Source: Rhizophagus irregularis (lineage: Eukaryota). From it: DNA of 64,000 nt. The position numbers and the translations under genes are program-made. Numbering within the stretch: position 1 is the first letter of the stretch; each line of letters starts with the position of its first letter. Where the stretch lies: positions 4,092,001 through 4,156,000 of the forward strand of contig NC_089433.1 in assembly GCF_026210795.1 (NCBI RefSeq), written 5' to 3'. Below the pieces are notes generated by a model. The model was not told the origin of the DNA. It searched no databases and worked only from the letters and a program-made list of their open reading frames with translations. Shown one piece after another: positions 30,661 through 53,965 of the stretch.

Positions 30661-30667
30661 CTACTAC

Positions 30668-31288
30668 GTCGTCGGGCTGGTAGTGTGCCTCGCTACGCTC
30701 CTCCCACCTTGGCCTCGCGGCCTCACAGTACCTACATCCCCCCTCCGTGGGGCAGGTTTACCTGCCACAGTACCATGGTCTGCCACGGTATTTTTCCACT
30801 TATTTTTTTTCTACATTTTTTCTTATATATAACTTACTATGACAACTATGGCAACTATGGCAGACTACTTAAAAACGGAATAAAAACGCGAATAAAGCCG
30901 AAATCAGACAGAATCTCCTGCCATAGTACCTGCCATAGTACGAAAAACCTTATAATAATACTATGGCAGCCTTAGTCAGCCCCTTAGACCCCAAAACCCG
31001 ATTCACGCTATGATTACCCTTTATATACTCACCTAGACCCCCAAGTAACACCCCCTATGTCCTGAACTATGGCAGCCGAACTATGGCAGCTGAACTATGG
31101 CACCCGAATTATGGCACCTGAACTATGGCACCCGAATTATGGCAGCCGAACTATGACCCCAAGTATGACCCCCTATGTCCTGAACTATGGCACCCGAACT
31201 ATGACCATCAAACTATGACCACCGAACTATAACCACTTGCCCCCGTCAGAAAAAATACATTCGGCAATTGAAGATTAGGTAACTATAA
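30668..31288 (+). repeat. Left terminal inverted repeat (621 bp)
   Basis: Reverse complement of 53405-53965; starts GTCGTCGGGCTGGTAG; contains 14-bp GAAYTATGGCASCY repeats. Confidence 0.95.
31266..31275 (+). promoter_or_regulatory. Element-specific upstream motif AATTGAAGAT
   Basis: Identical 10-mer 23-41 nt before ATGs at 31299, 38729, 47757 and 53376; variants before 32189, 48328, 48902, 50849 and 37992. Confidence 0.6.
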
Positions 31289-31298
31289 GTAACATACA

Positions 31299-31814
31299 AT
31301 GATAAACTTACACGCCGCCACTTCTCTTGCCGAAGATCTTGGTCTCGATCTTGTAGACATCTATGGAATCCGTAAATGGATCCAAATGCAGGCTTCGCCC
31401 TTCAACGACCCAGACATAGTAAGAGAGATGGTCAGAAACCTTCCGATCAAAGAATTCGGAAAACATCTCAAGATAAACAGACTCTGGTACAACGGTTGTA
31501 AAGCCAAGTTGTGGAAGCGATATAAAGAAGCTGAGGAGGTATACAAACAGGCAGTAGACTACTACAGGGAGGCCATTGGCAATTTCAATGAAGCCGATCA
31601 GAAAAAATACACTAGGTTCGCAGGAATGGTGGCAGTAGAAAGAGCTCTCCTCAGATGTGGCTTTATAACGCAAGAGTCCGACTGGGAGAAATGGACTCAA
31701 ATAACGTACAACATCCAATTGCTTAAGGAAGGCCGCACTCTTGATGACTCGGACGATGAATCAGATGATGGAGAGGTATCTCTCGATGACTCAGATGATG
31801 AGGAATACTTTTAG
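31299..31814 (+). CDS. Hypothetical helical protein with acidic tail (element ORF)
   Basis: 171-aa ATG ORF directly inside the left TIR, after the shared motif; D/E-rich C-terminus. Confidence 0.75.
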   Translation: MINLHAATSLAEDLGLDLVDIYGIRKWIQMQASPFNDPDIVREMVRNLPIKEFGKHLKINRLWYNGCKAKLWKRYKEAEEVYKQAVDYYREAIGNFNEADQKKYTRFAGMVAVERALLRCGFITQESDWEKWTQITYNIQLLKEGRTLDDSDDESDDGEVSLDDSDDEEYF

Positions 31815-31823
31815 AAGGCGGTA

Positions 31824-32144
31824 CTAATCTGTCTTTCTCTTTTTTGCTTCCTTAAGGTATTTATCAATACACTGTTTACACGCGTCATCAGCCTCTAAAA
31901 TTTTTTGCCCAAGTTTTTTGCATTGCCGATTATACGCCGTCTGATGTCTTTTAGCCGCGGTTTCTTTTTTCTTCTCCTTGGTTTTCTTTTTGATAACCCA
32001 GTCTATCCCAGTAAAAGTATTCTTATGCATCCCACAAACTACACAGTCACCATGTAAACGATAGCAGCCATTTGTGGTCATATCTTGTATTTCACTAGCA
32101 GTCTCGGTTTCCTTCTTACACTTTAGGCAGTAAAATCGTGTCAT
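31824..32144 (-). CDS. Small basic Zn-ribbon protein (DUF5679-like)
   Basis: MTRFYCLKCKK...GDCVVCG, Lys-rich tail, further CxxC; probable ATG 32144, divergent from the integrase. Confidence 0.7.
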   Translation of the reverse strand: MTRFYCLKCKKETETASEIQDMTTNGCYRLHGDCVVCGMHKNTFTGIDWVIKKKTKEKKKETAAKRHQTAYNRQCKKLGQKILEADDACKQCIDKYLKEAKKRKTD

Positions 32145-32188
32145 CTTAAGATTTGAAGTCCGAAATCTTTCCTTTAATTTGTCGTAAT

Positions 32189-33280
32189 ATGTCGCATTTA
32201 GAGAATTATTACAAATACTACAATCTCTCCGGAGTACCGGCACGAATTCTAAAAGGTGAGGAGCACTACAACCTATACAAAAAGCCCTTAAAGGAAAAGT
32301 CATCAGAGCGTCCACGAGTAGTTGTATGGAAATCAAATGCGACGCATCAGGCAGATCTCGCAGAGATGCCAGTCGACCCCAAAGGATTCCACTATTTCCT
32401 CGTAGTGGTGGAAGTCGCGGGTAAACGAGTCGATGCAGAACCCCTAAAGGATAAGACTGCAAATAGGATTCTAAACGGGTTTGTCAAAATCTACAGAAGA
32501 AATCGTATTAAGCCACCAACACACAGACTGGAGACAGACTCCGGATCAGAATTCACCAATGATCAGGTACGTGATTTTTTCCTGAACAGCCTAGGGGTAA
32601 TGATGAGGTTCGGAGAGCCAGGAAGACACAAACAGCAGTCATATGCCGAACGAGCTATCCAAGCTATTCAAGAACCTCTTCTCAAACGAATGGTGGCACA
32701 GGAGTTGAAGACTGGGGTGACATCCGTGGAATGGTCAGAAGATTTCTGTGATGTAGTTAATAAAATAGATAAACTCTGGCAAAGAAATCCCCCAGACATT
32801 CCGACTGGGTCACCCAAGGTGTCAAAAAAGACGGAACTTCTCTCTGAAGGAACGCGTGTTCGAGTAAAGTTAGATGAACCTATCTCAGTACTCGGGAATA
32901 AACTCCATGGAAAATTTCGTACAGGTGATATAAGATGGAATCCCAATATCCGTGTCATCAAAAAAATGATCCTCTCACCCGAACAGCCTCCTACGTATCT
33001 TCTTGATGGACCACACGGGCGACTAGGTGTATCCAGATGTGCATACACCCGAAAAGAGTTGCAGATTGTTCCAGAAAATGAACATCCCCCACCTAACTCC
33101 GTGATAAGAGGGCAACCCGAAAGATTTGTACCTGAGCGGATACTCCGGCATCGCATCAGGAAGGGTCAAGACCAGTATCTAGTCAAGTGGGAACGATACC
33201 CAGATACCGAAGCCACTTGGGAACCCGCTGACCGGTTGGAGGAGGATGTCCCCGATTTAATCCGCAAGTTTTGGGAATAA
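32189..33280 (+). CDS. Retroviral-like (rve) DDE integrase with C-terminal chromodomain, Maverick type
   Basis: HQADL / ETDSGSEF / YAERAIQ catalytic triad; chromodomain ERILRHR...YLVKWERYPDTEATWEP; first ATG 32189. Confidence 0.92.
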   Translation: MSHLENYYKYYNLSGVPARILKGEEHYNLYKKPLKEKSSERPRVVVWKSNATHQADLAEMPVDPKGFHYFLVVVEVAGKRVDAEPLKDKTANRILNGFVKIYRRNRIKPPTHRLETDSGSEFTNDQVRDFFLNSLGVMMRFGEPGRHKQQSYAERAIQAIQEPLLKRMVAQELKTGVTSVEWSEDFCDVVNKIDKLWQRNPPDIPTGSPKVSKKTELLSEGTRVRVKLDEPISVLGNKLHGKFRTGDIRWNPNIRVIKKMILSPEQPPTYLLDGPHGRLGVSRCAYTRKELQIVPENEHPPPNSVIRGQPERFVPERILRHRIRKGQDQYLVKWERYPDTEATWEPADRLEEDVPDLIRKFWE

Positions 33281-33294
33281 AAAATAAATATTCC

Positions 33295-34026
33295 CTATTT
33301 TTTGTCTCCTCGATTCACGTCAGAAACTATCGGGATAAAACCATTCTTCTCATTACAAGTAAGGGCGATATGTTCACGTGATTCATGGACATCATAATTG
33401 TAACGTTTCAGACACGTCCGGCTCAATCCAATCTCCCTATGCTTGTAATCGCTTAAAACCGCGAGGTCCTCAGTGATAATACAATCAGGGGTTAGTTTGA
33501 TTGACACACCTTTTACCATGCCGAATGTCCTACCAGATCCCGGAGCGCCGGATATGTTATGTGTAATACTCTTGTCGATATCCAACCCTAATTCTTCAGC
33601 GGCTTCTCTCTGAATAAAAGACGCGTTAGCACAAGTGTCTGCTAAACACTGAATTGCTATCCCATTGACCTCCCCATCCAGCGCTAAAAGATCTTTAGTA
33701 TTCTCCAAACGAGCTATGTCAATATCCATCGGGTCATCTTCCCTGATATCCTCTTCTTGTTTTTCCTCAACTAGGTCTTCTGGAATCTCCGTACTTTTAC
33801 GAGCAGACTTTAATTCTTCCCGAAGAATCTCGCGGAGTAATTTCCTAAAATCTGCAGACCTTAATAAACTTAATGAATCATTTTTGGTGACGGCTTTTAT
33901 AAGTGTAGGCTTACTCCTAGTAACCTTCACAGGAATCTTAATAGGAGTCATTTTAACTGATTTTTTTGGAACAGATTTAAGAAGTTTCGAGATACTTACA
34001 CCCTTATCCGAGTTTACTTTTTTTTT
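33295..34026 (-). CDS. Retropepsin-like aspartic protease, -1 frame relative to Gag
   Basis: GEVNGIAIQCLADTCANASFIQREAAEELGL fits the LxDTGAxxSxI region; flap ISGAPG; PMDID motif; no ATG until well inside the ORF; overlaps the gag end at an A9 run (34018-34026). Confidence 0.75.
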   Translation of the reverse strand, partial: KKKVNSDKGVSISKLLKSVPKKSVKMTPIKIPVKVTRSKPTLIKAVTKNDSLSLLRSADFRKLLREILREELKSARKSTEIPEDLVEEKQEEDIREDDPMDIDIARLENTKDLLALDGEVNGIAIQCLADTCANASFIQREAAEELGLDIDKSITHNISGAPGSGRTFGMVKGVSIKLTPDCIITEDLAVLSDYKHREIGLSRTCLKRYNYDVHESREHIALTCNEKNGFIPIVSDVNRGDKK

Positions 34027-35507
34027 GTACTTCGAACCGCACAAATCCGAAAACCACCTTCCTCATCAGGAACAATTTTCAAGTCATCAAAACTCACGGT
34101 ATTAGTATCAATATCCATAGCATCATCATTAAGATCGAGGTTTCTCATTGCTTGGGCTAATTCCAAATCATCGCGTCTATCTTTAGCCTTCTGAAGTCGC
34201 TTTGGAAATCTTTTAGACGTCTCATATCCCATAATAAGATCAATAACATGTTGATCATCCTCACTAGTCCATTCAGGAGCATCAGGGTCATCACCAACAT
34301 CATGATCTACATAACCATCATCCCAATCAGGATCCTGATGATCCTGAACAACGCGTGGCCGTGGCTTCGGCCGAACAGGTTTAATCTGTTGTCTATAGAC
34401 CGGTGGTTTACGAACTGGCTTAGATGCTTGTAATTGTTTAAATTGCGCCTGAAAATTCTTGGTAAGTTCCTCGGCTTGTGCCTTGAGCAATTCTTGTAAT
34501 CGTTTTTGAGTAATAACGTCTGTCGACCTTTGTATTACAGCACCTTCGTGTGGAGTCACGGGATGAGTATAGCCAGCTAATTCCTCTTTTTTAGCCTTTT
34601 CAATACCCTGGCGCCTTTGTAATCTATAGAACATTTCGCCCTTTCGTCGTTCAAGATCACTCAATCTATCGATTAATATATTAAGAGGTGCCACCCCGAT
34701 TCTGGAAGCTTCAATAACATTTTCCGGCAAAAGTCCTCTATAGAACTGGTCAGTAACCATGATTTGATTATATCCTACAATATCCCCAGCCCTCTCAACT
34801 CGCTTATAGTAAGATCGAACAGGTTCACCTTGTTCCTGGTAAAGGTTACTAAATCGTATTTGAAGTCTTTCTTCCACGACGGTTGGAAAATTTGTGCGCA
34901 TATGCATAAATGCTTGATCCAGGAGAATCCCCTGTAAGACTATCGGTTGATTCTGAACAGCAGCATTGAATGGACCTCCATGATCTCCCAACCCATTAAC
35001 GGGTAGATGAGTAGGACGTCCGCTCGCACGCCTCCACTGCTCTTCAACTTTAAAATTTGTTCTAACGATATCAGCGCGTGATGGGAAAAATGCGTCTCCA
35101 ATAGTTACCGCCGCATTAACCCCAACTAGAGAATATGCATGAGCAGCAGATCCAGGCACATAAGTATTAGGATGTAGTCGTCCAGCACCAGCATTTTCAG
35201 GAACAACCAAAGCTCTGAATGCTCGGCGAGTGGCACCGGCTCCACCATTTGCAGCAGCCACTAACCGAATATTCGAGAGTTCCCAATTTTTTCCAGTAAG
35301 TTCCGCATCAAACCACCTCGCCGCTTCATCTCTCATACAGCTACGAAGAACCCCCATCGCTCGCATCCGACCAGGAGGCGCACCGGCATCGTCCAATGGA
35401 TCAATACCAACGGTATTAATATACCCTAAAAAGTTATCAATAAAAAGATTAAGATCTTCATCTTCCCGACCATGAAATATGGGGGCAGCTATACCAACAG
35501 CAGCCAT
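34014..35507 (-). CDS. Ty3/gypsy-like Gag capsid protein with Ala/Gly-rich insertion
   Basis: PIFHGREDED..FIDNF...MRDEAARWF (capsid NTD); LYQEQGEPVRSYYKRV...DQFYRGLLPE (major homology region, CTD); DAMDID; no CCHC knuckle. Confidence 0.75.
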   Translation of the reverse strand: MAAVGIAAPIFHGREDEDLNLFIDNFLGYINTVGIDPLDDAGAPPGRMRAMGVLRSCMRDEAARWFDAELTGKNWELSNIRLVAAANGGAGATRRAFRALVVPENAGAGRLHPNTYVPGSAAHAYSLVGVNAAVTIGDAFFPSRADIVRTNFKVEEQWRRASGRPTHLPVNGLGDHGGPFNAAVQNQPIVLQGILLDQAFMHMRTNFPTVVEERLQIRFSNLYQEQGEPVRSYYKRVERAGDIVGYNQIMVTDQFYRGLLPENVIEASRIGVAPLNILIDRLSDLERRKGEMFYRLQRRQGIEKAKKEELAGYTHPVTPHEGAVIQRSTDVITQKRLQELLKAQAEELTKNFQAQFKQLQASKPVRKPPVYRQQIKPVRPKPRPRVVQDHQDPDWDDGYVDHDVGDDPDAPEWTSEDDQHVIDLIMGYETSKRFPKRLQKAKDRRDDLELAQAMRNLDLNDDAMDIDTNTVSFDDLKIVPDEEGGFRICAVRSTKKK

Positions 35508-36193
35508 ATCGTATTTTGTGGATGGTTGAGAGGATGTGGAGGAGGGTTCAATTGTCTAATCCGAAACCATTGTACTTGGATACGCAGAGCGGCTATTTGT
35601 TGGAAAAGTCGATTCCTAAGACGTCCCAATGTCCGAATTCCAAAAAGAACCCGATTATTGGCATATACAAGCCGATTTCGTGCCGCATCACGCTCGCCTA
35701 TAGCTCTATTACGTTCACCTATAGCTCTATTACGTTCTCCTCTCATAAGATTATATTGCTGCTGAAAACGACGATTAGTCGTCCGCATACCACCAAACTC
35801 ACGTTCCAATTCAGCCAAATTAGCTTCTAAACCAGTAATAGTATCTTGTACGTTATTTAACTCATCTTGTGTAAGACCTAACAAACCCGTTTGAACCTCG
35901 AGTTCATCTTGTAATTCATCGCGTTCTTTTCGAGATCGATCGCGTTCCGCTTTTAATATATCGTGTTCTTCGTATGTTTCTCTACAGCGATGAATTAATA
36001 AATTAAGAGCATGTTTAAGACGATGGTTGGCATTTTGTACATCTCGATTAACAACCATGCGATCACTGACAGTTAAAAAATCTGTTAGATCCTTAATTAC
36101 CGCAACTAATGGTATATTATTCATATCACGCAAATCCCTAGGAGGCGGTCCAGTAGGCTCTGAAGGAGTATAAATTGCAATTGGTGTCGACAT
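35489..36193 (-). CDS. Coiled-coil protein, probably the N-terminal part of the Gag gene
   Basis: Heptad-rich, with GERNRAI repeats; overlaps the gag ATG; one extra A in the run at 35514-35517 fuses it in frame (PQKYDMAAVG). Confidence 0.7.
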   Translation of the reverse strand: MSTPIAIYTPSEPTGPPPRDLRDMNNIPLVAVIKDLTDFLTVSDRMVVNRDVQNANHRLKHALNLLIHRCRETYEEHDILKAERDRSRKERDELQDELEVQTGLLGLTQDELNNVQDTITGLEANLAELEREFGGMRTTNRRFQQQYNLMRGERNRAIGERNRAIGERDAARNRLVYANNRVLFGIRTLGRLRNRLFQQIAALRIQVQWFRIRQLNPPPHPLNHPQNTIWLLLV

Positions 36194-36224
36194 CGTATTT
36201 AAACTAAATTAGAATAAAATTCAA

Positions 36225-37448
36225 ATGGATCTTTATGTATACAATTTGGACGAGTACACGACCGACTCGAGACAGGGTAATGAGTTTGCCCCATCATGGC
36301 CTTTCCGTCTTGCCGTAGCAGGAAGTTCTGATTCGGGTAAAACAACTATGATCATTAATTTGTTAATGGGAGACAAGAAGGCAAAGGAGGATGGCGAAAG
36401 GTACATATTATGTGATGCGGTAATTCTAGTTGGCAGATACCTCGATGAACTGAAGTGGGCAGTCGTACGTGAATTTTTCAAAGAAGAAGAAATTCCGTTT
36501 ACCGCAGTATCCCATAGTGAGATTCCAAATGTTAAGGACTTCAACTCCACCCAGGCTACTGTGGTAATCTTCGAGGATTTGATGGATGCGCCTAAAAAAA
36601 CCCAGGATCTCATCACTGGATTTTTTACACACGGGCGTCATAAAAATATCTCGTGTATCTATGTGGCCCAAAGATTCTTTACCATTCCCAAGGCTATTCG
36701 TGAAAATGTGAATTATATTTCCCTATATGGAGGTCACGGAAGTTTGACCGATACTAAGAGGATCATCCGCCAGTATACAGAAGAATCGGAGTCACTAGCT
36801 CCAGTAATCGATGACCTTACTCTACAACGCGAATTTATAGTATTTGATCTTAGAAGATCCAAGAGCGATCCGTTATCCATTCGGGTTAGATGGGATACTA
36901 GTCTCAGTTCGATCACCGATCAATCTCAGTTCGATCCTAGTTCGATCTCAGTTCAATCTCCGTTCGATCCGAGTTTGAATCCAGTTCGATCCCCGTTCGA
37001 TCCGAGTTTGAACCCAGTTCGATCGAAGTTTAGTCCTTATGGCCAGAAGGCCGTAGCTGAAGCAAAAAAGTCCTCCCAGCTAATCGAGTTTGCTCGGGAA
37101 TATCCATTGCCTAAAGAGAGAAAACACCTTCTCGTATCTGGTGTTATAGCTAAGAACGCAGATACCTGGATTAAGTACGTCTTTCGGGAAGCCTACGGAC
37201 TATCTGGTAAGACCCTGGGATCAGACTTCCAAAACTTCTTAGCGAAAGTACGGGATAGGACCACGAAGACTGAAATTCCAAAACCTGAGACCGTAAAGGA
37301 GTTATTCTCCCGGTATGAAACCCTGAAGTCTAGTCACCCTTTGGATAATAAAAAAATAATAGAAGGCATTGGAGTCCTTTTACAGATCTTTTCTAAGGGC
37401 CACATGGACCGTCGAGCATTACGAGTAGGGATCAATAGTATTTTGTAA
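36225..37448 (+). CDS. A32-like (FtsK/HerA) DNA-packaging ATPase with C-terminal extension
   Basis: Walker A AVAGSSDSGKTT, Walker B VVIFEDL, GRHKNISCIYVAQ, AIRENVNY; 11-aa repeats SPFDPSLNPVR (~36925-37025). Confidence 0.88.
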   Translation: MDLYVYNLDEYTTDSRQGNEFAPSWPFRLAVAGSSDSGKTTMIINLLMGDKKAKEDGERYILCDAVILVGRYLDELKWAVVREFFKEEEIPFTAVSHSEIPNVKDFNSTQATVVIFEDLMDAPKKTQDLITGFFTHGRHKNISCIYVAQRFFTIPKAIRENVNYISLYGGHGSLTDTKRIIRQYTEESESLAPVIDDLTLQREFIVFDLRRSKSDPLSIRVRWDTSLSSITDQSQFDPSSISVQSPFDPSLNPVRSPFDPSLNPVRSKFSPYGQKAVAEAKKSSQLIEFAREYPLPKERKHLLVSGVIAKNADTWIKYVFREAYGLSGKTLGSDFQNFLAKVRDRTTKTEIPKPETVKELFSRYETLKSSHPLDNKKIIEGIGVLLQIFSKGHMDRRALRVGINSIL

Positions 37449-37992
37449 GAATCTCGCGAAGTTCTTCCGCAGAAGCCCTAAGAATCATGGCGCTTTTTTT
37501 ACGTCCTTCGAAGTCAATCCGTAACATCCTAGCTTTTAACCCAATAGCTCCTAAGGCTCGAGAAGCAAAGTTTTTAGTCATCGGATTACTTATATGACTT
37601 ACATAGTTCTCATAGAATGTAGTAAAGGGTTCATCAATACCATCCGGGTATGTATTCCGTAAGAACTGATATAAGGCAATTTCCCCACTGTCACATCCAA
37701 TGGCTATAAGCTGTTCAAGAAGCCACTTCCTAGTATCCTCGTATGAATCTCCATCCATAATTTTCATATCCAGTCTTTGTGTGAATAATTGCGTAAAATC
37801 CGCATTACTTGCCCGACGAATAATCTGGACCAACTTATCCCTGGCAAGTCCCAAGGCTTGTAAAGGTTCACTCTCGTCACCAATCTTCTTTATAATTTGT
37901 CTATACAACACGCTGGAAAATCCTCTATATGCCGCTTTTGCAGAGAATACTCCACAGTTTTGACACTGGTTTATTAAGATTGATGTTGACAT
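37432..37992 (-). CDS. Hypothetical protein, possible winged-helix C-terminus
   Basis: 186-aa ATG ORF; N-terminal CxxC; FTTFYENY...TKNFASRAL pattern resembles the post-ATPase domain of D5-like helicases. Confidence 0.65.
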   Translation of the reverse strand: MSTSILINQCQNCGVFSAKAAYRGFSSVLYRQIIKKIGDESEPLQALGLARDKLVQIIRRASNADFTQLFTQRLDMKIMDGDSYEDTRKWLLEQLIAIGCDSGEIALYQFLRNTYPDGIDEPFTTFYENYVSHISNPMTKNFASRALGAIGLKARMLRIDFEGRKKSAMILRASAEELREILTKYY

Positions 37993-38144
37993 GGCTATCT
38001 TTCTTTGATTATTCGCTCACTTAGTATCCTTCACAATCTTTTTTATATATTGTTATCTTTAAATACCTGTCATTTGTATAAAAAAAAATAACTGACATTA
38101 AGGGATCAACCGTTGGAAAGACCAGAGGACCGGAGGACTGACCA

Positions 38145-38729
38145 TTAGGAAGCGCAGTCCTTGCACAACTTGTCCGTTAAGTCACTTGGGCTTACAGGCA
38201 TGAGACATTCCCTACACAACTCAATATTAAGCTCTGCAAGTCTCGGGGCATGGTCCTCCAAAGTTCGTGGACGACCGGAAGGACCGGAGGAAGGTGTCCC
38301 GTTAGTCGTATCCTGCTGTAAGATAAAATCATCATATTCATCTTGGTCAGCCTGAATAGCGGCCCTGATTTGTTGTATAACATTGAAAGTTAACCGCTGG
38401 CCATCAAGATTTTCCTCATTATAGTGTGTTTCATTGATGATTTCCTTTATAAGCTCCTCCTCTTCAGAATGAACAAGGTAGTAGTCCTCAACTACCTCGT
38501 AGTCACTCTCAACCAATCTATGATACGTTCTAGTACCGTGTTGAATATAGCGTCCTGTATCTGTATTTAAATATACAGGTTGTTCCTGGTGTGGAGGCGG
38601 TGCGGTTTGTCTACGGACAAGCCTTCCATCGATATAATCATGGGATTCCATAACTATTCGATTAAAGGTATCTCCACCAACACGGATTGGACGTCCGGTT
38701 ATAGGATTAGTTATATAAGGGTATGACAT
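38145..38729 (-). CDS. Protein with two NPxTGRxI repeats (2-cysteine-adaptor-like) and C-terminal C4 Zn finger
   Basis: ITNPITGRPIRVGGDTFNRI and LNTDTGRYIQHGTRTYHRL; CREC...CKDC. Confidence 0.7.
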   Translation of the reverse strand: MSYPYITNPITGRPIRVGGDTFNRIVMESHDYIDGRLVRRQTAPPPHQEQPVYLNTDTGRYIQHGTRTYHRLVESDYEVVEDYYLVHSEEEELIKEIINETHYNEENLDGQRLTFNVIQQIRAAIQADQDEYDDFILQQDTTNGTPSSGPSGRPRTLEDHAPRLAELNIELCRECLMPVSPSDLTDKLCKDCAS

Positions 38730-39078
38730 GTCTTTTTTCTGTACGTGTCTACATACCTAATTGTTATCTTCAATTTACAATAACCAAGTGACATCGTCAT
38801 CAGTCCTTGTCACAGCAAATATGGCATAGTAGCCTTTATCTTTATTAAATTTATTTAACGAACTTACAAAAATAAAATAAAATTTTCAAAGTACAAAAAA
38901 GAAAAATAAAATTAACTAAAAACAAAACTATATAGTCTCCAAAACAGTAATAAAGCTATAAAATAATTCAAAAAGAAAAATCGCATAACACTAAAACTAT
39001 CCTGATCCCCCGCCTAAATATATTTCAACCTAAGAAGAGGCAACTATGCAAACAAACCAACGAACAATGCGCCCATTA

Positions 39079-44700: not shown

Positions 44701-44747
44701 TAGGACACAATGATAATTATAAACGGGGAGGAGAATTAAGAAGTCAA

Positions 44748-46878
44748 TTATTGCGAAGGAGCAGAAGCTCGATCGGAGGGAGAACCACCAAGAGAAGCAA
44801 TAAAACCTTGAATGGAACCAGTGAGCGATTGTAGAGTATCTTTAATCGCTTTTTGATCTTGGATAACCGAGTTCAATTCGTCTTGCGGGGAAGGGGTATA
44901 AGTGGATGTGAGAGCTGAGTGCGGAACAATGGTAGGTGCAGATTTGGGGGGAGTGGATTTCTTAGGACCAGAAGACAAAGGAGCATTAGGATGTGGGATT
45001 AAGGTACCAGTAATTTCAGGAGGGTCTTCTTCCATCCGATCAGGTTCAGAATTGACAACAGGAGCGGAAGGAGGATTGATGCCTAAATGGGCTTCAATAG
45101 CAGATAGCCGTTGATTGTTAAGTTCAAGATGGGAGATGCGGGATTCCACACGAGCAACATCTTGTTGAAGGGTTTGCAATACGTTAAGTATCTTAAGGGC
45201 AGCCTCAAGAGCATTAGAAGAATTCGGATCCGAGAGCGGAGCACGAGCATTGGACGAAAAAGAAACAGATCTATCTTTGCCTTTTCGATTATTGGAAGGC
45301 GTGCGTCCATAAGCAGTTGAGGAGGAGTTAACAGGACCAGAGGAGGAGGGTATAGTATTGTTAGAGTTATTATTATTATTATTAGGGCGGTTAGAGTGTG
45401 AATTCGGACGTTGAGCAGAGGCAGAACGATCTCGAGATTTAGAGCGAGAGCGAGACCTAGAATTATTACGTGGAGATCTTTGTTGAGCAGGTCTTTGGCC
45501 AATATTAAAACGGTCTTTAAGGGCGGCAACAGGATCACGTGTACGTGAGCGTCCACGACGTAGATTGAGCGGGCAAGAGGTAGGAGCACAGCCGAGTTTA
45601 CCACATCGGTGGCAAAGAGCTTTTGAATCGTTGGAAGAACCCCACCGAAGAGTACGACCTTGGAATCCGATTGTTTGTTCCATAGCGGCATCCATTGTCG
45701 CTTGTGAATTGAAGGTAACATAAGCCCATGGTTTAGGTTTATATGAGTTTAAGGAAAGAGGAATATTAATAGCTTTGGCTCCATGTTCTTTAACTAATGG
45801 AGCGAGATGGATATCTTTAGTGTTAGCAGGGAGTCCAGAAAGGACAGCAACAAATTCACGACGAGCAGCTTTTTGATCCACAGAATAGTGACAGGGAGTA
45901 ACACGCAAACAAGTGGAGAAACAATAGACTGCCCATTGGGTGGTGAAACGGGCGATGGCATCGGCATGATCATAGACGATGCGGGCTTGTTGCATCTTAG
46001 CACCTTTCCTTGAATAGAGATGGAGGGAGAGCAAATTGCCAAATTTTTTAAAGTAGGATTGTAGTTGAGGTTTCGTGATGAAGAACGGTATATCGGTGAC
46101 TTGGATAGCTCGGAGATCTTCATCAGATCGGAGCTGTTTGGGATCGTACAAGTGGAATTGAAGGTCCAGAAATTCAGAGTGCGTACTACCAACACACAAG
46201 TCACGAGCCTCCGCAGTGTGAAAATGAATGATAAGACGTTTAGCGTCCCCTGAACCAGTCATACGAGCTCGACCGGTATATGATTCATAAGTTTCTAAGA
46301 ATAGATTATTAACGGCATCAATGATTGCCTTATTAGTTTTAAGTTTCTCAAGAGTTTGGGGAGCGGAGTTGGGCGCAGCCGCAGCCAGAAAATCCTGACG
46401 ATTAATGGTAATGGTGGGGAGGGATCGACAGCCTGATCGGGCGATGTACCATCATTTACGTCCATATTAAGGGACGCGTTAGGGATGAGTTATTTTCTTT
46501 GTTTCTTGGTGCATGAATAGACGCGTTAGCTCCAGAGGACGCGTCTTGGCCAGGCGCAGTGGGCGCAGCAGAATTAATCAGGGCAGATGCTTGAGTATTT
46601 TCTAGGGGAGTGCTGCGGGAATTATTTTGTTGAGGAATAGCGGTCGAAGTTGAACCAACTAATCCACCGTCAGCCAGCGCGTCGGCAACGAAATCTTCAT
46701 AGTCTTCATCCATGGAGTCTTTTGTAATGATACGGGAACGTTTTTGGGAAGTGTTATCACTATTGGAACCAGAGTTGTCAGAGAGTTGTTTTTTATTATT
46801 TTTCTTTTCTTGACGAGCAGCCTTATTACTATTAGGATTAAAGCTGCCGCCACCTCTTTTAGCAAAGTTTCTAGACAT
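44748..46878 (-). CDS. LINE ORF1 (RRM-like domains, Cys knuckle, coiled coil), two single-base shifts near 5' end
   Basis: IQVTDIPF..YFKKFG, WAYVTF, CHRCGKLGC..C; joins ATG 46878 if one base is added to the G runs at 46482-46484 and 46416-46419. Confidence 0.8.
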
Positions 46879-47364
46879 GTTAAAAGGTATGAGTTGGGTA
46901 AAATATAAGAGTTGTTAGTACATCAGTCCTTGTCACGAAACACGAGGATACCTGATGATGAGGTTACATGGTCATCAGTCCTTGTCACAAAACACGAGGA
47001 TACCTGATGAATAAGTTATTGGATTATTGGCCTAAAAAGCATTCATGGAAAAACCGTGGAATTTTTTACAGTACAGTGTATAAAAAAAGTGCTAAACTTT
47101 GAGATCGGGACACGATGTCTCGATCTAATAATTTCGATGTCATGTGACTTCATGCGGGTACGTAGATCATTTCCTTATTGGGCGATACCCGTTCCACAAA
47201 AAATCGATTTTGGTAAAAATGCGTTTGGAATCTTGTGTAACATAAATTTCCCTTTTCGGTAATTCGGGATTACGCGGTAATGCCGGCCGGATCTAAATAA
47301 TATGACTCTGCAGGGTAATTCCTACGAAAGTCAAGTACAAAATGCTTACTTCTGTTGAGTCCAT

Positions 47365-47757
47365 TCATACCACTCCCAGTCCCCAAGGATCGCCTCCCCA
47401 TCTATGTTCACTTAATGCATGCTCTATGGTTTCCCTCTCTTGGGGGTCCACGACCATCCCATTCCTAAGCATTTTCTCCATAATATAAAGCTGATCCTCG
47501 GTGAGGCGGTCTATCCATCTTTTATAGAAGTCGTTTACATCTTCAAATGTTATCCAGTCAACATTCCCTTTTTCGAATGGCTTTCCAAGAGCTCGGACAT
47601 ACCCGATCATAGTGGCATAATTTTTCCACCTCTTATATGCCTCTTGACGAACTTCCTGCCACCACACTCTATCTACCTTACTCACTGCAATAAGGTCAGT
47701 ATCCGGGATCTTTGCGACAATGCGTTTGACTATTTCTACTGGTAATCGGTCCAACAT
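47365..47757 (-). CDS. F-box protein
   Basis: MLDRLPVEIVKRIVAKIPDTDLIAVSKVDRVW matches the F-box consensus LPxEIxxxI...L..VS.V.+.W. Confidence 0.8.
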   Translation of the reverse strand: MLDRLPVEIVKRIVAKIPDTDLIAVSKVDRVWWQEVRQEAYKRWKNYATMIGYVRALGKPFEKGNVDWITFEDVNDFYKRWIDRLTEDQLYIMEKMLRNGMVVDPQERETIEHALSEHRWGGDPWGLGVV

Positions 47758-47866
47758 GATGTTATGTTACTTATACTATAGCTATCTTCAATTACTGTAT
47801 GCCTATTACACATGGATAAAAAATATAGACTAAATTCGTACAGGATCGTAGGATCACAGGAGCCGC

Positions 47867-48328
47867 TTATGCAAGAAGTTCTGTTAAGGTTTTCTCAGCC
47901 TCGTTTTTAGTAATAGCTCGCTTTGGAGTACCGGTTGATGAGTCCTTAGTCGCATTATAATACAATTCGAAGAGGGCCTCAAGCTTATCTAGGAGAGCTT
48001 GTTTATTCTTGTATGATTCGCGGATTTTTGCTATCTTAGCAGTATATGCCGCATTATCTGGGAAGAGTTTTCTGGCCACGAACTTCACATATGATACAGG
48101 AGAATTTGCCGTCTGGATTCGCTTGATATACTTCACGTGGTCCTGGACGAGGTAACTGGTTTTGCTAAACCCAGATACTAATGCGACTACTATAGTATCT
48201 TTTAATGCGCGGATAATCTTGGGGACAGTTTCGTCAGAGACAACATTAGGCTGAATGCGCGATGCCTCGTAAATAACCTCCTCACTAGTGCTGTTAACAA
48301 TGCTTGCGAATTCGGTATATGTTGACAT
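47867..48328 (-). CDS. Hypothetical protein (element ORF)
   Basis: 153-aa ATG ORF preceded by AACTGAAGAT and followed by a T6 tract. Confidence 0.7.
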   Translation of the reverse strand: MSTYTEFASIVNSTSEEVIYEASRIQPNVVSDETVPKIIRALKDTIVVALVSGFSKTSYLVQDHVKYIKRIQTANSPVSYVKFVARKLFPDNAAYTAKIAKIRESYKNKQALLDKLEALFELYYNATKDSSTGTPKRAITKNEAEKTLTELLA

Positions 48329-48410
48329 GATTCTTTGTACTTTGTAATAAATATGAATCTTCAGTTACCTGTTCATTAAAACGAGAAAAAATAAATATGA
48401 ACCTCGGGGT

Positions 48411-48902
48411 TTACACTTGGGATACTGCAAGGCGGTAGAAGCGTTGCTCGGCCTTTTGCATCAATGGAGAGCCTGGTCTATACAACCAGGGGATAGCGAC
48501 TTTCTGGATAATCCTAGCCGCTTTATTGTTCCTTCTTTCTATATATCTCCTAAAGGCATTCTGGATCATTTCAGCATGATGAGTATAATAGTCGAAATTA
48601 AAATGCTTTGGGCAACTATATAAATGTAGTCGTACCGCTTGATCCATAGAAGCGTTGGCTTCCCATCCGCGATCAATAAAATATTTACAGTAGGTACAGT
48701 ACCACCTATTTGGTAGTCGTGATACTATTCTCCTAATGTGCACAATATAAGCATATACAGCTTGACGAGACCTTGGATAAGGTGGCCGCTTATAACCTAT
48801 TCTACTACAAGTATCATAATATTGCACAGCATTCTGAATGCGCCTAGCCCACGTGTGGAAACTTTCATCGTCTTGTCTACCTAATCCGTCAGTGTTTTGC
48901 AT
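48411..48902 (-). CDS. IQ-motif protein with possible Zn finger
   Basis: AEMIQNAFRRY and AARIIQKVAIPWLYRPG; CTYC...H...C; start at 48902 inferred from the upstream AATTGAATAA (alternative ATG 48932). Confidence 0.65.
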   Translation of the reverse strand: MQNTDGLGRQDDESFHTWARRIQNAVQYYDTCSRIGYKRPPYPRSRQAVYAYIVHIRRIVSRLPNRWYCTYCKYFIDRGWEANASMDQAVRLHLYSCPKHFNFDYYTHHAEMIQNAFRRYIERRNNKAARIIQKVAIPWLYRPGSPLMQKAEQRFYRLAVSQV

Positions 48903-48995
48903 TTGGGTATCTCGTAAGATTACATATCCCATAGGTTTATTCAATTATGCCATCACGGTATGTCAGTAAAAAATACACATACCGGTCCCTAGCAA

Positions 48996-50849
48996 TCATG
49001 TCCAGATAACTTTGTTCGCATTTTTCACATGGCAGTATCCCGCGGTTTCAAACTTGAAAGTCTTTAGAGTCGTATCTGCATTCTCTGAACAAGTGAAAAG
49101 CGCGGGGCTATCTGGCTGTTCTTCTAAAATAAATCCGTCTGTATGGATACGTCGTACTTTATCCTTGTATGGTTGAATTGCCTCAGATGTGATTTTGCGA
49201 CCACGTGCTAATAAGAATGGGGCGATCCTGGGATACTCACCTTTGAAGGGATTACCCGGGTTTGTAAACTGGAATCGCCACTGGTCGGATCCTACTGGTA
49301 TGATAGAGTCGAGTGTATGGCCCTCTGGAAATGTAAATGGGTCTGTTTGATCTGTGGTGAGTGTCTTATAATTACGCTTCCTCTGGCATAATGCTCCTCA
49401 TAATGTGTTGAGGACTCGCTTTGCCACGCGGCCAGCTACGCCACCCTGGTTTTTAATTTTGAAGAGGAAGTATACATACTCACCGAATATTACAGTTCCA
49501 GGAATTCTCGCTTCTCTATCATATATCAATGCATTTGGCTTCCCATCCTGTATTAACTGTATATTGAGACCAAGTTTTTTTGCTCGTTGTAAGTCGATGA
49601 ATGTATAGATTCCCCTTTTATTCTGTCGGAAGAGAATATTATTCCCACTTACCTTGGCACGGAATAATCCATACAAGGCATAACCCCTGTGGTCAACAAA
49701 GTTATTAAGTGTCTGGAATTTACCCCGTCTGATTGGAAAGTTCGCGTTCGATTGTTGGATACTCGGGTATAAACTTGTTGCGTCGTACTGTCTTCCATAG
49801 CCCTTCCACTCATTATCTGCCCAGATTAATCCTCCCATCATTGCATCACTTAACCACTCTGCTTCTATCGGGTCAAGAGGATCATTGGCTGGAATCCCTA
49901 CACTTAATCGTTCGAATAACCAGAGAGCCATTCTTTTGTAAGACCAGTTATGGTATGATAAGTCGATTCCTAAACCGAACTTCTTTGTAGTCTGTAAAAA
50001 GACATCCCGCTCCTCGTGGATTCTCTGATATGCTTCTTCAAGAGTTTCATATATTCCCGTTTTACGGTTTTTCTCAACAGAGATAAAGGAACTCTTGGAA
50101 TTCTTAGTTTTTTGAAACTGCGCAATTGTGCAAGACTTAACTGTTTTGCCGTTGTATATTGTGACTACATTGTTTACTCCATCTTCATGATACACAATGG
50201 GCAGATTACGCTTCCTATCTAATTTACTGGGGTGGAGTCTTCCGGGATTTAACGCGAGGGAGTAATGACCCTCAGACAGGATGAGAGTCGCACGTCTATC
50301 GGACTTACTCTTAGAGATTCGGGTAATGTCCCCCACAATATTAATTGTGAGACTTCCTGCGAGTTGTTCAACCTTGTCCATGCATGAAACTGGGATGGGA
50401 GCATCGCGATTGAGACCTAATGCCTTTTTGATATACTCAGGCTTTTCGATTGACTTTGGCATTTTAGAGAATGTGCCGTAGATATATTTCAGGCATTCAT
50501 ACAGGCAATCATTTAGCTCCCCGTTGCAACCTCCTGCGGCTGGTGGACTATCTCTCGCATAAATTATGAATTGTTCAAAATAATCAGGGTCTGCGTCATC
50601 CAGTAGTTGTGCTTCATCATAATGGTCTAATAGTGAAAAGAGGCTGGCTGGTTGGTTTCCTGATGTCCATCCACTGGGTTTCCAGTTTTCATAGGGAAGT
50701 AGGATCTGGAACTTTCTATCTGGAAATCGCGCCTGAAGAGTCTGACCGAGTCTGGTGATAGCTCCTCTGGAAAAGCGGGCACCAGAATATTGAAGTTCCT
50801 TGATGTCAGGTCATGTTGGTAAAGTGCGGGCGATTCTTGAGTATTGCAT
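48996..50849 (-). pseudogene. Compact family-B DNA polymerase (617 codons) with two in-frame TGA stops
   Basis: One frame from ATG 50849 to TGA 48996; MMGG, motif A YDATSLYPS, motif B KRVLNTL*GAL, motif C RIHTDG; stops at 50811-50813 and 49398-49400. Confidence 0.85.
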
Positions 50850-50932
50850 TTTTATGTATATGATTTGTCTTCAAATATAAATAATAACTTTCTATATATA
50901 CGAAAAAAAAAAGAAATAATCTCAAATAGTGC

Positions 50933-53376
50933 TTACAATATGTCGTTGATAACGCCCTCAGTATCCTCTTCGTTCCAGTCATCGATGATTCCATTGGCGG
51001 CCTCCCATTCACGTTCCATATCAGTTTTTGGACGTTCCTCGGGGATCTCTCGCGCTTTTCCCTTATCTGCCCTCATAGTTTCATACCCAGAGGGGGTGGG
51101 AATAATCTTGGCATTACGATTCTCCTTGTATACTCTTATTAAATCCGCGAGTTCTTTACGGCTAGGTGTTTTAGATAAGTATCCATTATATTCGATCCAG
51201 TCCTTGAAGCGGTCTACTACTTCCATAAGGTAGTACTGGTACTCATCCTCAATACGCGTTGTGGGACATTCCTCTACTTCAAACGCGAGTATTTCCCAGT
51301 CATAGTCATCTGACGCATCTTGATACTTGGCCCATAATTCCTTACCTGTATTGTAGAGATCATTGAAGACCTGGTCCTTTAAATTTTTAACCCACGGTTT
51401 GCGATCCCATCGGTGTCTTTCATGCCAAGCCCAGTGCGCTCGAGTGCCTTCCTTTGGTTCAGGATCCCGGTCGACTTCTGGTTCTGTGTCAGGTTCTGGG
51501 ATAAGTTGCTCTTTGGGAGCCGGTACTACTACAGGTTCTGTAGAAAATTTAGAATCTGCGAGGGATTCAGATTTTGTGGAAGATTCTGCGGGTTGTTGCT
51601 CAAGAACTGGGTCCACGGTTGTAGAATCCGAGTCTGATAACAAGTCGTCTAAAACGTCATAGTCATCTGGCTCGGGGGTGGGTTCTTCTTGGTCAGGTTC
51701 CTCGTCAGATAGATAACAATCTGAGAAGCTATCTATAGGTTCATCGGTGTTTGACTCACTAGTGTTTACATCGGGATCCGGTTGTTCTTCCCTTAACCCT
51801 TGTGGACGTTCTTTTAAGTGGTCAGGCTTGGGTGGAAGCGGTGGAGGAGTCTTGCGAATTACAGGTGCGGGTTTTTCTTCAGCGGGTTCGGGTTTTTCCT
51901 CTGTGGGTTCGGGTTTTTTCTCAGCGGGTTTATCCTCTGCAGGTTTCTCGGCAACTAACTCTACTTCCTCTACTGGTGCTTCCTGTACGTCTTGTACATC
52001 TTGGATTACTTTACTAAAATTCTCCGCGATTTTTGCTTTATCTAGTATGTAATAGTTTATTCGGGTACCTGAGCGGCTTACACGCATTTTGGGGGCGAAT
52101 TGTTTAATCTCCATACCGAATTTATTGTCACTTAGTGTTTTGTTTTCACCCTTCTCACTGCACCAGTTTTGGTAAGTACTATAGAAATTTGTACACGGGA
52201 TTTCAAGTGTATCACAATTGTCGGGCCACATTATTTCAAGGTAATATTGTATAAAACGCTGGGGATTCGGGATACTTGCTTCGATTAACTCCCGTTTCAT
52301 TTGAATATCAGGAATAGATCGGGGATTGAAGCCAGTTAAGTCTCGGCTAAGTAGATAGGACATGAAGGAACTGGCTGTATCCAGATTTTCTAATACTTTT
52401 ACGAGAGAACTGAAGTATTCTCTATTGCCCTTATATTTGGCTGAGACGTTGAGAGCTACAAATCTTTCATCCCCCATTTCTATACGGATTGGCATAGCAT
52501 GATTACTGAGGATCATGTAGCCAGCAAAGTCATCAATAACCTTCACATCTATCCCCTTTTCCTCGATAGAGATGTAAGGCTCGGTGATTAAACTCTTGAG
52601 TCGGTTGTTTGCCCCATGCCATTCCTTGCCTGACATATCGCATTCATTGAGGATGATAAGTTTTTTGGCATGAACAGCCGCATTGAACCTTCCCATTACA
52701 TCTTCAAGACGCGTAGTGGAAAGGAAGTTTTCACGGCCGAGAATACGTTCTCTGATAAAATCGGTTAAGATATTCTTACCACATCTGGGGGGACTGCGCA
52801 TGATAATTGCTGTACCGGGTTTTTTGTCTGGATTTTGAATAAGGAATGCGAGCCAGTTGAGGATGTATGTGGTTAACTGCTTGTCCTCCGCACACCATAC
52901 CTCATGAACGTGTCGGATGATTGGATTAACTAGATTTAGTTTGATGCGCTCAGCGGGTTGGGCCCTGAAACCTAGGAAGAGATTGAAGAATTCAGGATTA
53001 TACTTTGGTGCGTTTGGGGGATAAGGCATGAAGTTTACATCTGTATAACAGATCTTTGCAATTGAGGCTTGGAGAAGAAGATCCTTTAATTTGGTGGATG
53101 TGGTCGCATCACTGTCTTCTCCGGTATCTGACCGAATAATTACCTTGTGCTTAGTAGAAATCCCCTTGAGATCTGCGGCGAACTCGAAGTATATACTTCC
53201 ATTGTAAGCCTTCTTTTTCTAATCCACATGCCGGATTTTGTGGTGATGAAAGCCACAGAAGCCGAGATTGCTGAATTGACGCTTTCTTTCGTGTGTGTAC
53301 CTACACATTTTTTAAGAAGGTCATCGTAGAAGAAACGGTTGTTGGGGTTAAAGATTGCTGGAACTTGAGCGGCCAT
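50933..53376 (-). CDS. SF3/D5-like helicase with long acidic/Pro-rich tail; one frameshift near 53215
   Basis: FNLFLGF, YILNWLAFLIQNP, Walker A SPPRCGKN, Walker B IILNE, motif C ILSNH, RFVAL; adding one base to T5 (53214-53218) joins ATG 53376. Confidence 0.85.
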
Positions 53377-53404
53377 TTTTTGTTCTATTAAATCGAGTAC
53401 TAAT

Positions 53405-53965
53405 TTATAGTTACCTAATCTTCAATTGCCGAATGTATTTTTTCTGACGGGGGCAAGTGGTTATAGTTCGGTGGTCATAGTTTGATGGTCATAATTCGGG
53501 TGCCATAGTTCAGGTGCCATAATTCGGGTGCCATAGTTCAGCTGCCATAGTTCGGCTGCCATAGTTCAGGACATAGGGGGTCATACTTGGGGGGTCTAGG
53601 TGAGTATATAAAGGGTAATCATAGCGTGAATCAGGTTTTGGGGTCTAAGGGGCTGACTAAGGCTGCCATAGTATTATTATAAGGTTTTTCGTACTATGGC
53701 AGGTACTATGGCAGGAGATTCTGTCTGATTTCGGCTTTATTCGCGTTTTTATTCCGTTTTTAAGTAGTCTGCCATAGTTGCCATAGTTGTCATAGTAAGT
53801 TATATATAAGAAAAAATGTAGAAAAAAAAATAAGTGGAAAAATACCGTGGCAGACCATGGTACTGTGGCAGGTAAACCTGCACCACGGAGGGGGGATGTA
53901 GGTACTGTGAGGCCGCGAGGCCGAGGTGGGAGGAGCATAGCGAGGCACACTACCAGCCCGACGAC
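53405..53965 (-). repeat. Right terminal inverted repeat (561 bp)
   Basis: Ends CCAGCCCGACGAC; about 60 bp fewer internal repeats than the left TIR. Confidence 0.95.

Follow-up and report, generated by a model that had tools for sequence, protein, structure and literature searches.

A mavirus-like DNA element of Rhizophagus irregularis with a retrotransposon-type Gag and protease beside its predicted packaging ATPase

The window analysed here, 64,000 nucleotides of the Rhizophagus irregularis contig NC_089433.1, contains a mobile DNA unit at 30668..53965 that measures 23.3 kb, or 15.2 kb once an inserted LINE is subtracted. The unit is flanked by a 5-bp target site duplication (TSD), ACTAC, at 30663..30667 and 53966..53970, and bounded by terminal inverted repeats (TIRs) at 30668..31288 (plus strand) and 53405..53965 (minus strand). 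These arms of about 600 bp are 94-100% identical in four blocks and 88% identical overall, because an internal array of 14-bp repeats differs in length between them. The element begins with GT and ends with AC; the corresponding termini of animal Polintons are AG and CT. Direct repeats within the unit do not exceed 49 nt, so that it has no LTRs, and the sole reverse transcriptase (RT) within it is that of the LINE, both as described in the initial annotation. The LINE (38798..46936, minus strand) encodes an RRM-containing ORF1 and an EN-RT ORF2 of 1873 aa (Pfam domains at 44748-46262 and 39079-44700, respectively). It is a secondary insertion and not part of the family: it has its own 16-bp TSD (38798/46921) and is not present between the corresponding genes of the related soil loci L015 and L038.

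The left part of the unit encodes an intact 363-aa rve integrase with a C-terminal chromodomain (32189..33280, plus strand; Pfam), 58-80% identical to its soil relatives. Head-to-head with it lies a small Cys-rich DUF5679 protein that is kept in relatives (31824..32303, minus strand, likely start 32144). An ORF of 171 aa with no assigned function (31299..31814, plus strand) was not seen in the 55 soil loci. The A32-like packaging ATPase (36225..37448, plus strand, 407 aa; Pfam Pox_A32) has intact Walker A, Walker B and GRH motifs, all kept in 48/48 ATPases, and a conserved C-terminal extension of about 180 aa; its dN/dS is mostly 0.07-0.3. The remaining small genes all lie on the minus strand: conserved ORFs of 186 aa (37432..37992) and 153 aa (47867..48328) with no assigned function, a conserved ORF of 194 aa with a weak 2-cysteine adaptor match (38145..38729), an F-box-like ORF of 130 aa (47365..47757) and a partly conserved ORF of 173 aa with an IQ-like C-terminus (48411..48932). 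The closest homologues carry the name Rhizophagus irregularis.

At the right end, a short protein-primed PolB with vOTU Cys/His and palm motifs (48996..50849, minus strand) lies beside a D5-like SF3 helicase (50933..53376, minus strand; Pfam DUF5906/Pox_D5 over 50933-53029). The set of PolB, helicase, chromodomain integrase and A32 ATPase within one TIR- and TSD-bounded unit had been recognized before; that this copy is dead had not. The PolB reading frame shifts near 50810-50830 and is interrupted by a stop at 49398-49400, and the helicase is frameshifted near its start, at about 53143-53218. In soil loci L015, L038 and L048 PolB is intact (624-628 aa). These intact proteins bear NDCLY and GHYS motifs in addition to the palm motifs (Atlas, 0.99 to a 617-aa cluster); single-sequence structure prediction gave no usable model (pLDDT 35.6).

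Long TIRs with a 5-6-bp TSD, a protein-primed PolB, an rve integrase and an A32-like packaging ATPase are Polinton/Maverick hallmarks, all found here, and fungal A32 ATPases group with those of Maverick-Polintons (bioRxiv 2026.06.19.733378, available text). The label 'Polinton-like' thus holds for the TIRs, TSD, PolB, integrase and ATPase; the replication module, a short PolB with a separate helicase, appears mavirus-like and not animal-Maverick-like. According to the available text of PMC11071308, mavirus likewise combines TIRs, rve, a packaging ATPase and a separate SF3 helicase; it has a short TP-vOTU-palm PolB without exonuclease, which the PolB of the present family appears to resemble. 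The capsid proteins of mavirus, major and minor, are of jelly-roll type and its protease is a cysteine protease, where the present family has a capsid domain (CA), a coiled coil and a retropepsin. The separate DUF5906 SF3 helicase, rve, chromodomain and DUF5679 are those of the mavirus-related pMVRE group 1. Matched by gene set and not by coordinates, the element very probably belongs to the fungal lineage of this group, which is similarly TIR-bounded and encodes pPolB, DUF5906 helicase, rve, chromodomain, DUF5679 and Pox_A32 (Wei et al., 2026; PMC13215967, available text). That lineage comprises 128 complete Glomeromycota elements, 110 of them from Rhizophagus and 6 from R. irregularis, many of 13-16 kb, and was described as being without structural proteins and 'likely plasmids'.

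Between the integrase and the ATPase lies a block of three minus-strand genes. A coiled-coil ORF of 234 aa (35489..36193) overlaps the start of a 497-aa Gag (34014..35507), which is followed by a retropepsin (33295..34062) with a DTC active-site variant. The retropepsin has its own ATG at 33951, and its frame is open to 34062, in -1 relative to Gag behind an A-run. Gag residues 1-307 are predicted to form a two-lobed CA with an insertion of about 110 aa, followed by a basic/acidic tail. The structure model, built from 53 sequences, reached a pLDDT of 89.8. In VIA, structural rows 1-36 consisted entirely of capsids from retroviruses, Ty3/copia, Arc or PNMA, with MLV at Z 8.7 over residues 4-307; the first unrelated row had Z 4.7, and all Z were below 9. 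The top Foldseek match was the CA-CTD of PEG10, with no Foldseek match to the model reaching E <= 0.001. The claim that 34014-35507 has a capsid fold is thus confidently borne out by modelling for 34587-35507, predicted to be a two-lobed retroviral CA.

The frame arrangement is constant: an A-run at the end of gag was found in 14/14 cases, with the protease frame at -1 and open across it in 13/13, representing about 7 independent lineages; no stimulatory RNA structure was detected behind the A-run in the 8 tested. The protease active site reads D-T/S-C/A in place of D-T/S-G in 9/12. A two-lobed CA with a retropepsin downstream, behind a -1 A-run, is shared with Ty3/gypsy (Metaviridae) Gag-Pro, Arc, PEG10 and the caulimovirus coat protein. 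In contrast to Ty3/gypsy, the family lacks RT and RNase H, LTRs and a CCHC knuckle, and its integrase is on the opposite strand. The CCHC nucleocapsid knuckle is common, not universal, in Ty3/gypsy; it is present in 0/12 full element Gags, whereas the nearest outside relatives of the block, Gag polyproteins of Glomeromycota, have a zinc knuckle and a protease. In these relatives the coiled coil is fused in frame to CA, in a matrix-like position. One branch (SH-aLRT 90) separates 13 element Gags from 7 knuckle-bearing relatives in a quick tree that was midpoint-rooted, so that the direction of transfer cannot be read from it. No RT domain is listed for the 120 near and 2 longer homologues. A check gave no support to the suggestion of an integrase fragment at the end of P0388.

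The block is an integral part of the family, as had been proposed from the window. In 27/55 soil loci gag is found on the upstream side of the ATPase and on the other strand. Wherever a soil contig extends 1.5 kb or more upstream of a related ATPase (20/20), gag-pro is head-to-head with that ATPase, at identities as low as 32%. The 31 bp between the ATG at 36193 and that of the ATPase were measured correctly in the initial annotation, although this ATG opens the coiled-coil ORF; that of the capsid begins at 35507, in a different frame. Across relatives, the spacer between the two genes is 31-78 bp and weakly palindromic (z >2 in 4/19). At the other end, the protease converges on the integrase in 8 loci, with stop codons 24-49 bp apart in the 7 measured and, as first noted, 14 bp apart in the window; in the exceptional locus L034 the protease faces another ORF. 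Gag and PolB occur on one contig in L015 and L048. For Gag itself, the two non-identical pairs with the least saturation give a dN/dS of 0.23-0.27. All 30 bins are covered by four DNA contig sets; none of the 15 joints listed skips the gag block, and with 511 further joints gag-less copies are thus possible.

Congruence of the gag and ATPase phylogenies had been suggested as a check; it did not hold at depth. Gag and ATPase identities are uncorrelated (Mantel r 0.03, p 0.41, 13 loci; rho 0.09 in 9 non-redundant loci), and the two trees are in supported conflict, L008 grouping with L034 for gag and with L012 for the ATPase. Both findings are awkward for a tightly co-evolved pair of motor and shell. 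Since the deep distances do not correlate, these modules have probably been swapped.

The genes of the element also appear to carry promoter and 3' motifs of giant-virus type. AATTGA is found in both TIRs, at 31266 and at 53427, the latter upstream of the helicase. Both AATTGA and TATTTTTT are AT-rich and were first chosen by eye in the window; in soil loci, AATTGA lies 20-55 nt upstream of 8/27 non-redundant replication and accessory genes (0.9 expected; missing from the other 19/27), and TATTTTTT lies within 80 nt behind the stops of 18/62 genes (1.8 expected). No enrichment of a late-promoter motif was seen before the coiled-coil or ATPase genes. In the window, the retropepsin gene is followed by TATTTATTTTTTATT at 33290. 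The 3' tract said to be common to the block and another element gene is indeed present at 33279 and 48386, with a single further occurrence at 20173, in AT-rich host flank sequence. Pacmanvirus has a AAAATTGA motif together with a WWTTTATTTTTTAWW 3' motif (PMC11788076, available text). An asfarvirus-like insertion in R. irregularis makes such a virus a candidate helper, and we regard dependence on a helper virus as an even chance.

From the gene set, synteny, predicted fold, intact motifs, purifying selection, knuckle loss and motif enrichment observed here, we propose that the unit is a decayed copy of an integrating, mavirus-like DNA family of arbuscular mycorrhizal fungi that probably carries its own DNA in a Gag shell, with the likely aid of the adjacent ATPase. 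This agrees with the original idea of a chimeric element in which a Gag shell replaces the DNA-virus module, DNA packaging being the inferred part of it. Formation of Gag particles is the likeliest step; that element DNA is their cargo is somewhat less so, though still probable; and packaging driven by the ATPase is possible, with the balance leaning slightly against it. The short PolB and the SF3 helicase would copy a linear, TIR-ended genome via protein priming, early genes likely being transcribed by RNA polymerase that a co-infecting asfarvirus-like giant virus supplies. Gag would be produced in large amounts, and -1 slippage at the A-run would add low levels of a Gag-protease whose protease could mature the shell, like adenain in Polintons. 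The particle would then carry the DNA, together with the integrase, along the coenocytic hyphae or from one mycelium to another. The integrase would insert the element with a 5-bp TSD.

Two alternatives deserve attention. Gag could co-assemble around a DNA-protein complex without any motor, a purely intracellular particle bringing DNA and integrase to nuclei while the ATPase serves genome segregation or resolution. This overlaps with our proposal, since the shell carries DNA in both, and differs only in the motor. CA lattices are not known to have a portal, motor and shell do not co-vary, and basic stretches of the Gag tail could bind DNA. Nevertheless, none of the packaging motifs of the ATPase is lost, its C-terminal extension is specific to the family, and its gene shares the short divergent spacer with the Gag block; we consider a motorless particle a tentative option. 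Slightly less plausible is that the element spreads as a transpoviron or plasmid, in helper particles or as naked DNA, and that Gag-protease has another job, either as an Arc/PEG10-like container of RNA or protein or as a dominant-negative factor that protects against retrotransposons or the helper virus. Giant-virus-type motifs would suit a helper-dependent passenger, the variation of gag is uncoupled from that of the ATPase, as could be the case for a gene in conflict, and the interpretation as likely plasmids by Wei et al. (2026; PMC13215967, available text) points the same way. Against this, a full cassette with a conserved frameshift signal beside an intact ATPase in about 7-13 lineages exceeds the needs of a restriction factor, and the RNA-binding knuckle is gone. 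Moreover, capsid-losing elements usually lose the ATPase too: nine Polintons without a major capsid protein (MCP) had also lost ATPase and protease (PMC4028283, available text), unlike this family, which retains its ATPase.

It is improbable that a true jelly-roll capsid gene was missed or sits on a helper element. The recovered loci include no complete, intact TIR-to-TIR relative, the small conserved ORFs were judged by sequence, and divergent MCPs have been overlooked in 'capsid-less' Polintons (PMC7805220, available text). However, neither the window nor L015 or L048 has an unassigned ORF above 200 aa, and the largest unannotated gap in the window is 428 bp, so that the unit appears to leave no room for such a gene. 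No Pfam capsid model was matched, though the same scan does detect capsids in virophage loci; L015 and L048, the longest relatives, contain no jelly-roll ORF. Likewise, no adenain/Ulp1 cysteine protease was matched in 16 ORFs at E 0.1, a retropepsin being present instead. The early statement that no remaining ORF looks like a jelly-roll capsid or adenain stands. Published MCP searches of R. irregularis were negative in the available texts (PMC7805220; PMC10640383); the latter covers five genomes, and the host therefore has no MCP to supply in trans. Finally, that gag-pro is a passively carried fossil LTR-retrotransposon is very hard to sustain, for although its closest outside relatives are Glomeromycota Gag polyproteins and retroelements do nest in these elements, as the LINE does here, LTR, RT and RNase H are all absent, the homologues searched included neither an RT-fused nor an LTR-bounded form, position and frame signals are constant throughout, and divergent copies whose ORFs stay open at 32-47% identity with dN/dS <1 already contradict it.

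Parts of this picture have precedents. In the available main text of Wei et al. (2026; PMC13215967), 'gag' occurs 0 times, and Retropepsin and Retrotrans_gag appear solely as rows of a domain co-occurrence table, with Dataset 5 giving 57 for PolB/retropepsin_like, 1 for retropepsin_like/MCP and 5 for retropepsin_like/RT_LTR. Gag and retropepsin labels stand uncommented on one element in the legend of Fig. 5 of Starrett et al. (2021; PMC8502044), our comparison being with the legend; the available text neither discusses them, nor tests integrality, nor proposes capsid replacement. A published element from the same host species, also without MCP, was read as a capsid-less transposon, Gag going unmentioned in the available text. 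The family, and even the Gag label, thus have partial prior art; among the openly available paper texts searched, we found none proposing Gag as the capsid of these elements. Among other systems, Bidnaviridae similarly combine a Polinton-type pPolB with the capsid of an unrelated virus lineage, according to the available sources, but they have ssDNA, a parvovirus-derived capsid, no integrase and no retroelement shell. Caulimoviruses hold dsDNA in a Gag-derived shell; in their case RT, not PolB, synthesizes the DNA within the shell.

If the shell does carry DNA, a capsid of retroelement origin has come to serve a DNA genome whose synthesis involves no reverse transcription, and a packaging motor has moved to a different shell; virus taxonomy places the two modules in separate realms. 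This would offer a candidate answer to the standing puzzle of the capsid missing from Glomeromycota Polintons. It is tempting, if doubtful, to go further and see a living dsDNA virus lineage of mycorrhizal fungi, a jelly-roll/reverse-transcribing chimera with no known equal, whose A32 motor pumps a protein-primed genome of 14-15 kb into a retropepsin-matured retrotransposon CA shell and which parasitizes an asfarvirus-like giant virus. According to the available text of a 2023 paper, no dsDNA virus of fungi was known. Scans of IMG/VR with Gag, the ATPase, PolB and knuckle-bearing Gag recovered no family member, and a GTDB scan gave no match; the ATPase-profile scan of IMG/VR retrieved 6 distant loci, three with Sputnik-type capsids. 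RNA reads on the element number 45-66 of 11 million per RNA run and are mostly partial. The four RNA runs contain no splice joints, and introns placed by gene callers in homologues are therefore unsupported. The family has recently expanded in R. irregularis, a major plant symbiont (PMC8647823, available text), and could move DNA among the nuclei of its host fungus. A Gag shell loading about 15 kb of DNA would also interest vector builders; by a rough volume estimate, it would need an inner diameter of 38-45 nm.

Our analysis gives good support to the view that, in the Polinton-like element at 30668-53965, a conserved Gag-protease module stands in place of the jelly-roll module. The TIR- and TSD-bounded unit proposed in the initial annotation is real, with inverted arms at 30668-31288 and 53405-53965 and ACTAC on both sides, and its GC content is about 0.42 versus about 0.25 in the flanking array of BTB/TLDc-type genes. 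Pfam matches within it comprise an rve-chromodomain integrase, a retropepsin, a Pox_A32 ATPase and a D5 helicase. Pfam and TSD agree that the sole RT belongs to a LINE with its own TSD, and the absence of direct repeats longer than 49 nt from the element bears out the reported lack of LTRs; the gene spacings and T-tract described earlier are also correct. Without the LINE the element measures 15,175 bp, and its longest gap is at most 428 bp. PolB and SF3 helicase genes are present as claimed, but both are broken, and this copy is therefore dead. The LINE (38798-46936) encodes an RRM ORF1 and a 1873-aa EN-RT ORF2, which, judging by a motif, appears to have an RNase H-like domain as well; the 5' end of the LINE carries a short duplication, and with it another TSD-like copy at 46971.

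The ATPase profile scan of soil metagenomes yielded 240 matched stretches, corresponding to 55 loci. A gag gene lies upstream of the ATPase on the opposite strand in 27 of the 55, and in all 20 loci with at least 1.5 kb of upstream sequence; among the 27 with at least 1.2 kb, the three that lack gag break off within or close to the coiled-coil ORF. The Gag block is thus integral to the element, as had been proposed. The order DUF5679, integrase, protease, gag, coiled coil, ATPase, small ORFs, PolB, helicase (read from L015, L022, L023, L035, L048 and L038) is kept while Gag identity to the window copy drops to 32-38%, so that gag-pro sits between integrase and ATPase in other copies too. The integrase faces the protease in eight loci; in L034 another ORF takes its place. 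As the loci include near-copies, they represent about seven independent lineages with gag and protease, and 13 were put into the tree.

A run of at least eight A ends gag in 14/14 examined cases, and the protease lies in frame -1, open across the A-run, in all 13 loci that have it; no stimulatory structure was found behind the run in eight tested, so a putative -1 slippage could be ribosomal or transcriptional. In 24/27, 13-16 nt separate the gag ATG from the coiled-coil stop that follows it. Walker A, Walker B and GRH motifs of the ATPase are intact in 48/48. L004, where a truncated family ATPase runs into an ABC transporter ORF of bacterial type (2041-3009), probably through misassembly, was excluded from the motif tests. 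The catalytic Asp of the protease is present in 12/12, the following Gly being replaced by Cys or Ala in nine. For the ATPase, most dN/dS values lie at 0.07-0.3; for Gag the ratio is 0.23-0.27 in the two least saturated pairs, 0.23-0.67 in near-saturated pairs and 0.95 in one near-identical pair. In L025 (2154-5681), a family member with the same coiled-coil start and ATPase, the next ORF encodes 1176 aa and has an endonuclease VII domain, as does the 1136-aa ORF of L056, a viral locus; it may be another replication gene brought in by exchange. Isolated pieces of the C-terminal lobe of Gag occur among accessory genes at L027:2505-2747, behind an F-box-like start, and at L023:128-445; they are possible dominant-negative or adaptor derivatives.

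Structural modelling identifies the 497-aa ORF (34014-35507, minus strand) as a capsid, in agreement with the initial annotation. Pfam does not match this ORF, its Atlas score to the Retrotrans_gag family is 0.94, and 11 of 34 scanned proteins weakly match Retrotrans_gag in Pfam. AlphaFold with 53 sequences gave a pLDDT of 89.8 for residues 1-307. The top Foldseek match was the C-terminal domain of PEG10 CA, ahead of HIV CA, with no match reaching E <= 0.001, and in a viral structure library Gag, metavirus and caulimovirus coat proteins ranked top, again weakly. In a wide VIA search rows 1-36 were all CA-type, with MLV, RSV, dArc1 and copia aligned over both lobes (best Z 8.8; first unrelated row, 4.7). 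An N-lobe insertion of about 110 residues was unmatched in that search. This confidently modelled insertion with beta-strands (34940-35285, residues ~75-190) is common to knuckle-bearing relatives, unmatched in solved capsids, and a candidate surface spike.

We consider it most likely, at somewhat better than even odds, that Gag would build a shell which the protease matures and which carries the element DNA with the integrase. The main argument is that the ATPase stays intact beside the capsid-protease cassette, with which it shares a 31-78-bp spacer, whereas Polintons without a capsid have usually lost both ATPase and protease (PMC4028283, in part). For a 13.5-15.2-kb genome filling 35-50% of the shell, the computed inner diameter is 38-45 nm. 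That the ATPase pumps DNA into the shell is a more tentative proposal, which we hold rather less probable than its negation; alternatively, Gag could assemble round the DNA. The chief rival to a DNA-carrying Gag shell is a helper-borne plasmid in which Gag has some other job.

Several observations together point to a possible virophage-like dependence. Intact PolBs (624-628 aa) have palm motifs as well as Cys and His motifs of the vOTU type and, judging by length, would lack an exonuclease; in the mavirus design a separate SF3 helicase accompanies a short TP-vOTU-palm PolB (PMC11071308, in part). At 33290 the T-tract matches WWTTTATTTTTTAWW, which is reported to mark gene ends in pacmanvirus; the early promoter of that virus is AAAATTGA (PMC11788076, in part). 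AATTGA, chosen by eye in the window and then tested on the soil loci (20-55 nt upstream), precedes 8/27 non-redundant replication and accessory genes and 2/33 coiled-coil and ATPase genes, versus 0.9 expected for each; TATTTTTT lies within 80 nt behind 18/62 stops (1.8 expected), including 6/6 integrases. Strain 4401 of R. irregularis carries an asfarvirus-like insertion of 1.5 Mb, and five genomes of the species yielded no MCP gene (accessible text of PMC10640383). Four RNA runs gave 45-66 reads each, mostly partial.

The family is known but misread. In the available parts of Wei et al. (2026), pMVRE group 1 holds 128 complete Glomeromycota elements, and the fungal lineage is described as free of structural proteins and likely plasmids; in their Dataset 5, PolB co-occurs 57 times with retropepsin_like, 29 times with pepsin_retropepsin_like and 8 times with Retrotrans_gag, on which the authors do not comment. 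The legend of Fig. 5 in Starrett et al. (2021) labels Matrix/Capsid/NC/Pro, with no discussion in sections 10 and 12; that figure and the supplement tables may show the same family. A Glomus Polinton without a detected MCP appears in the accessible portion of Bellas and Sommaruga (2021). Nothing on Gag in these elements was found in the available text of PMC11296320, bioRxiv 697771, PMC5751038, PMC8647823, PMC6431247, PMC11075540 or bioRxiv 2026.06.19.733378, and the literature searched holds no printed argument for Gag-protease replacing the jelly-roll module. Particles carrying DNA, if real, would be categorically new.

Searched with a profile, 1.84 billion representatives yielded 301 matches, the distant ones being Glomeromycota polyproteins with coiled coil, CA, CCHC knuckle and protease in a single frame; the knuckle occurs in 0/12 full element Gags. 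In a quick tree (63 rows, 43 unlabelled), one branch (SH-aLRT 90) parts 13 element Gags from seven knuckle Gags. This fits a single capture after which the RNA-binding domain was lost, a direction that the midpoint-rooted tree does not itself give. The expected congruence of gag and ATPase phylogenies failed, as their distances are uncorrelated beyond close clusters; the gag slot is kept, and its occupant is probably exchanged among family members. The sister-clade polyproteins (P0309, P0312, P0350, P0388, P0392 and P0395, from Glomeromycota) end after the protease where complete, and may represent a second Gag-bearing element family.

With the 497-aa ORF as query, 186 proteins matched among 7997 scored candidates. 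The best 120 of these are all named Rhizophagus irregularis and join coiled coil, Gag and protease (59), Gag and protease (47) or coiled coil and Gag (9), or have Gag alone (5); none of these 120 lists an RT domain, and a longer-protein search gave two matches of 5658 candidates, both without RT. R. clarus has relatives of the ATPase, and Entrophospora candida a close Gag. Around the insertion, at least nine host genes 2.5-3.8 kb apart (2581-22836 and 58400-62400), presumably BTB/BACK/TLDc genes from their motifs, form a tandem array that the element region interrupts. At the left insertion site (29600-30650) lies repeat DNA of low complexity with a strand skew, possibly another element that received this insertion.
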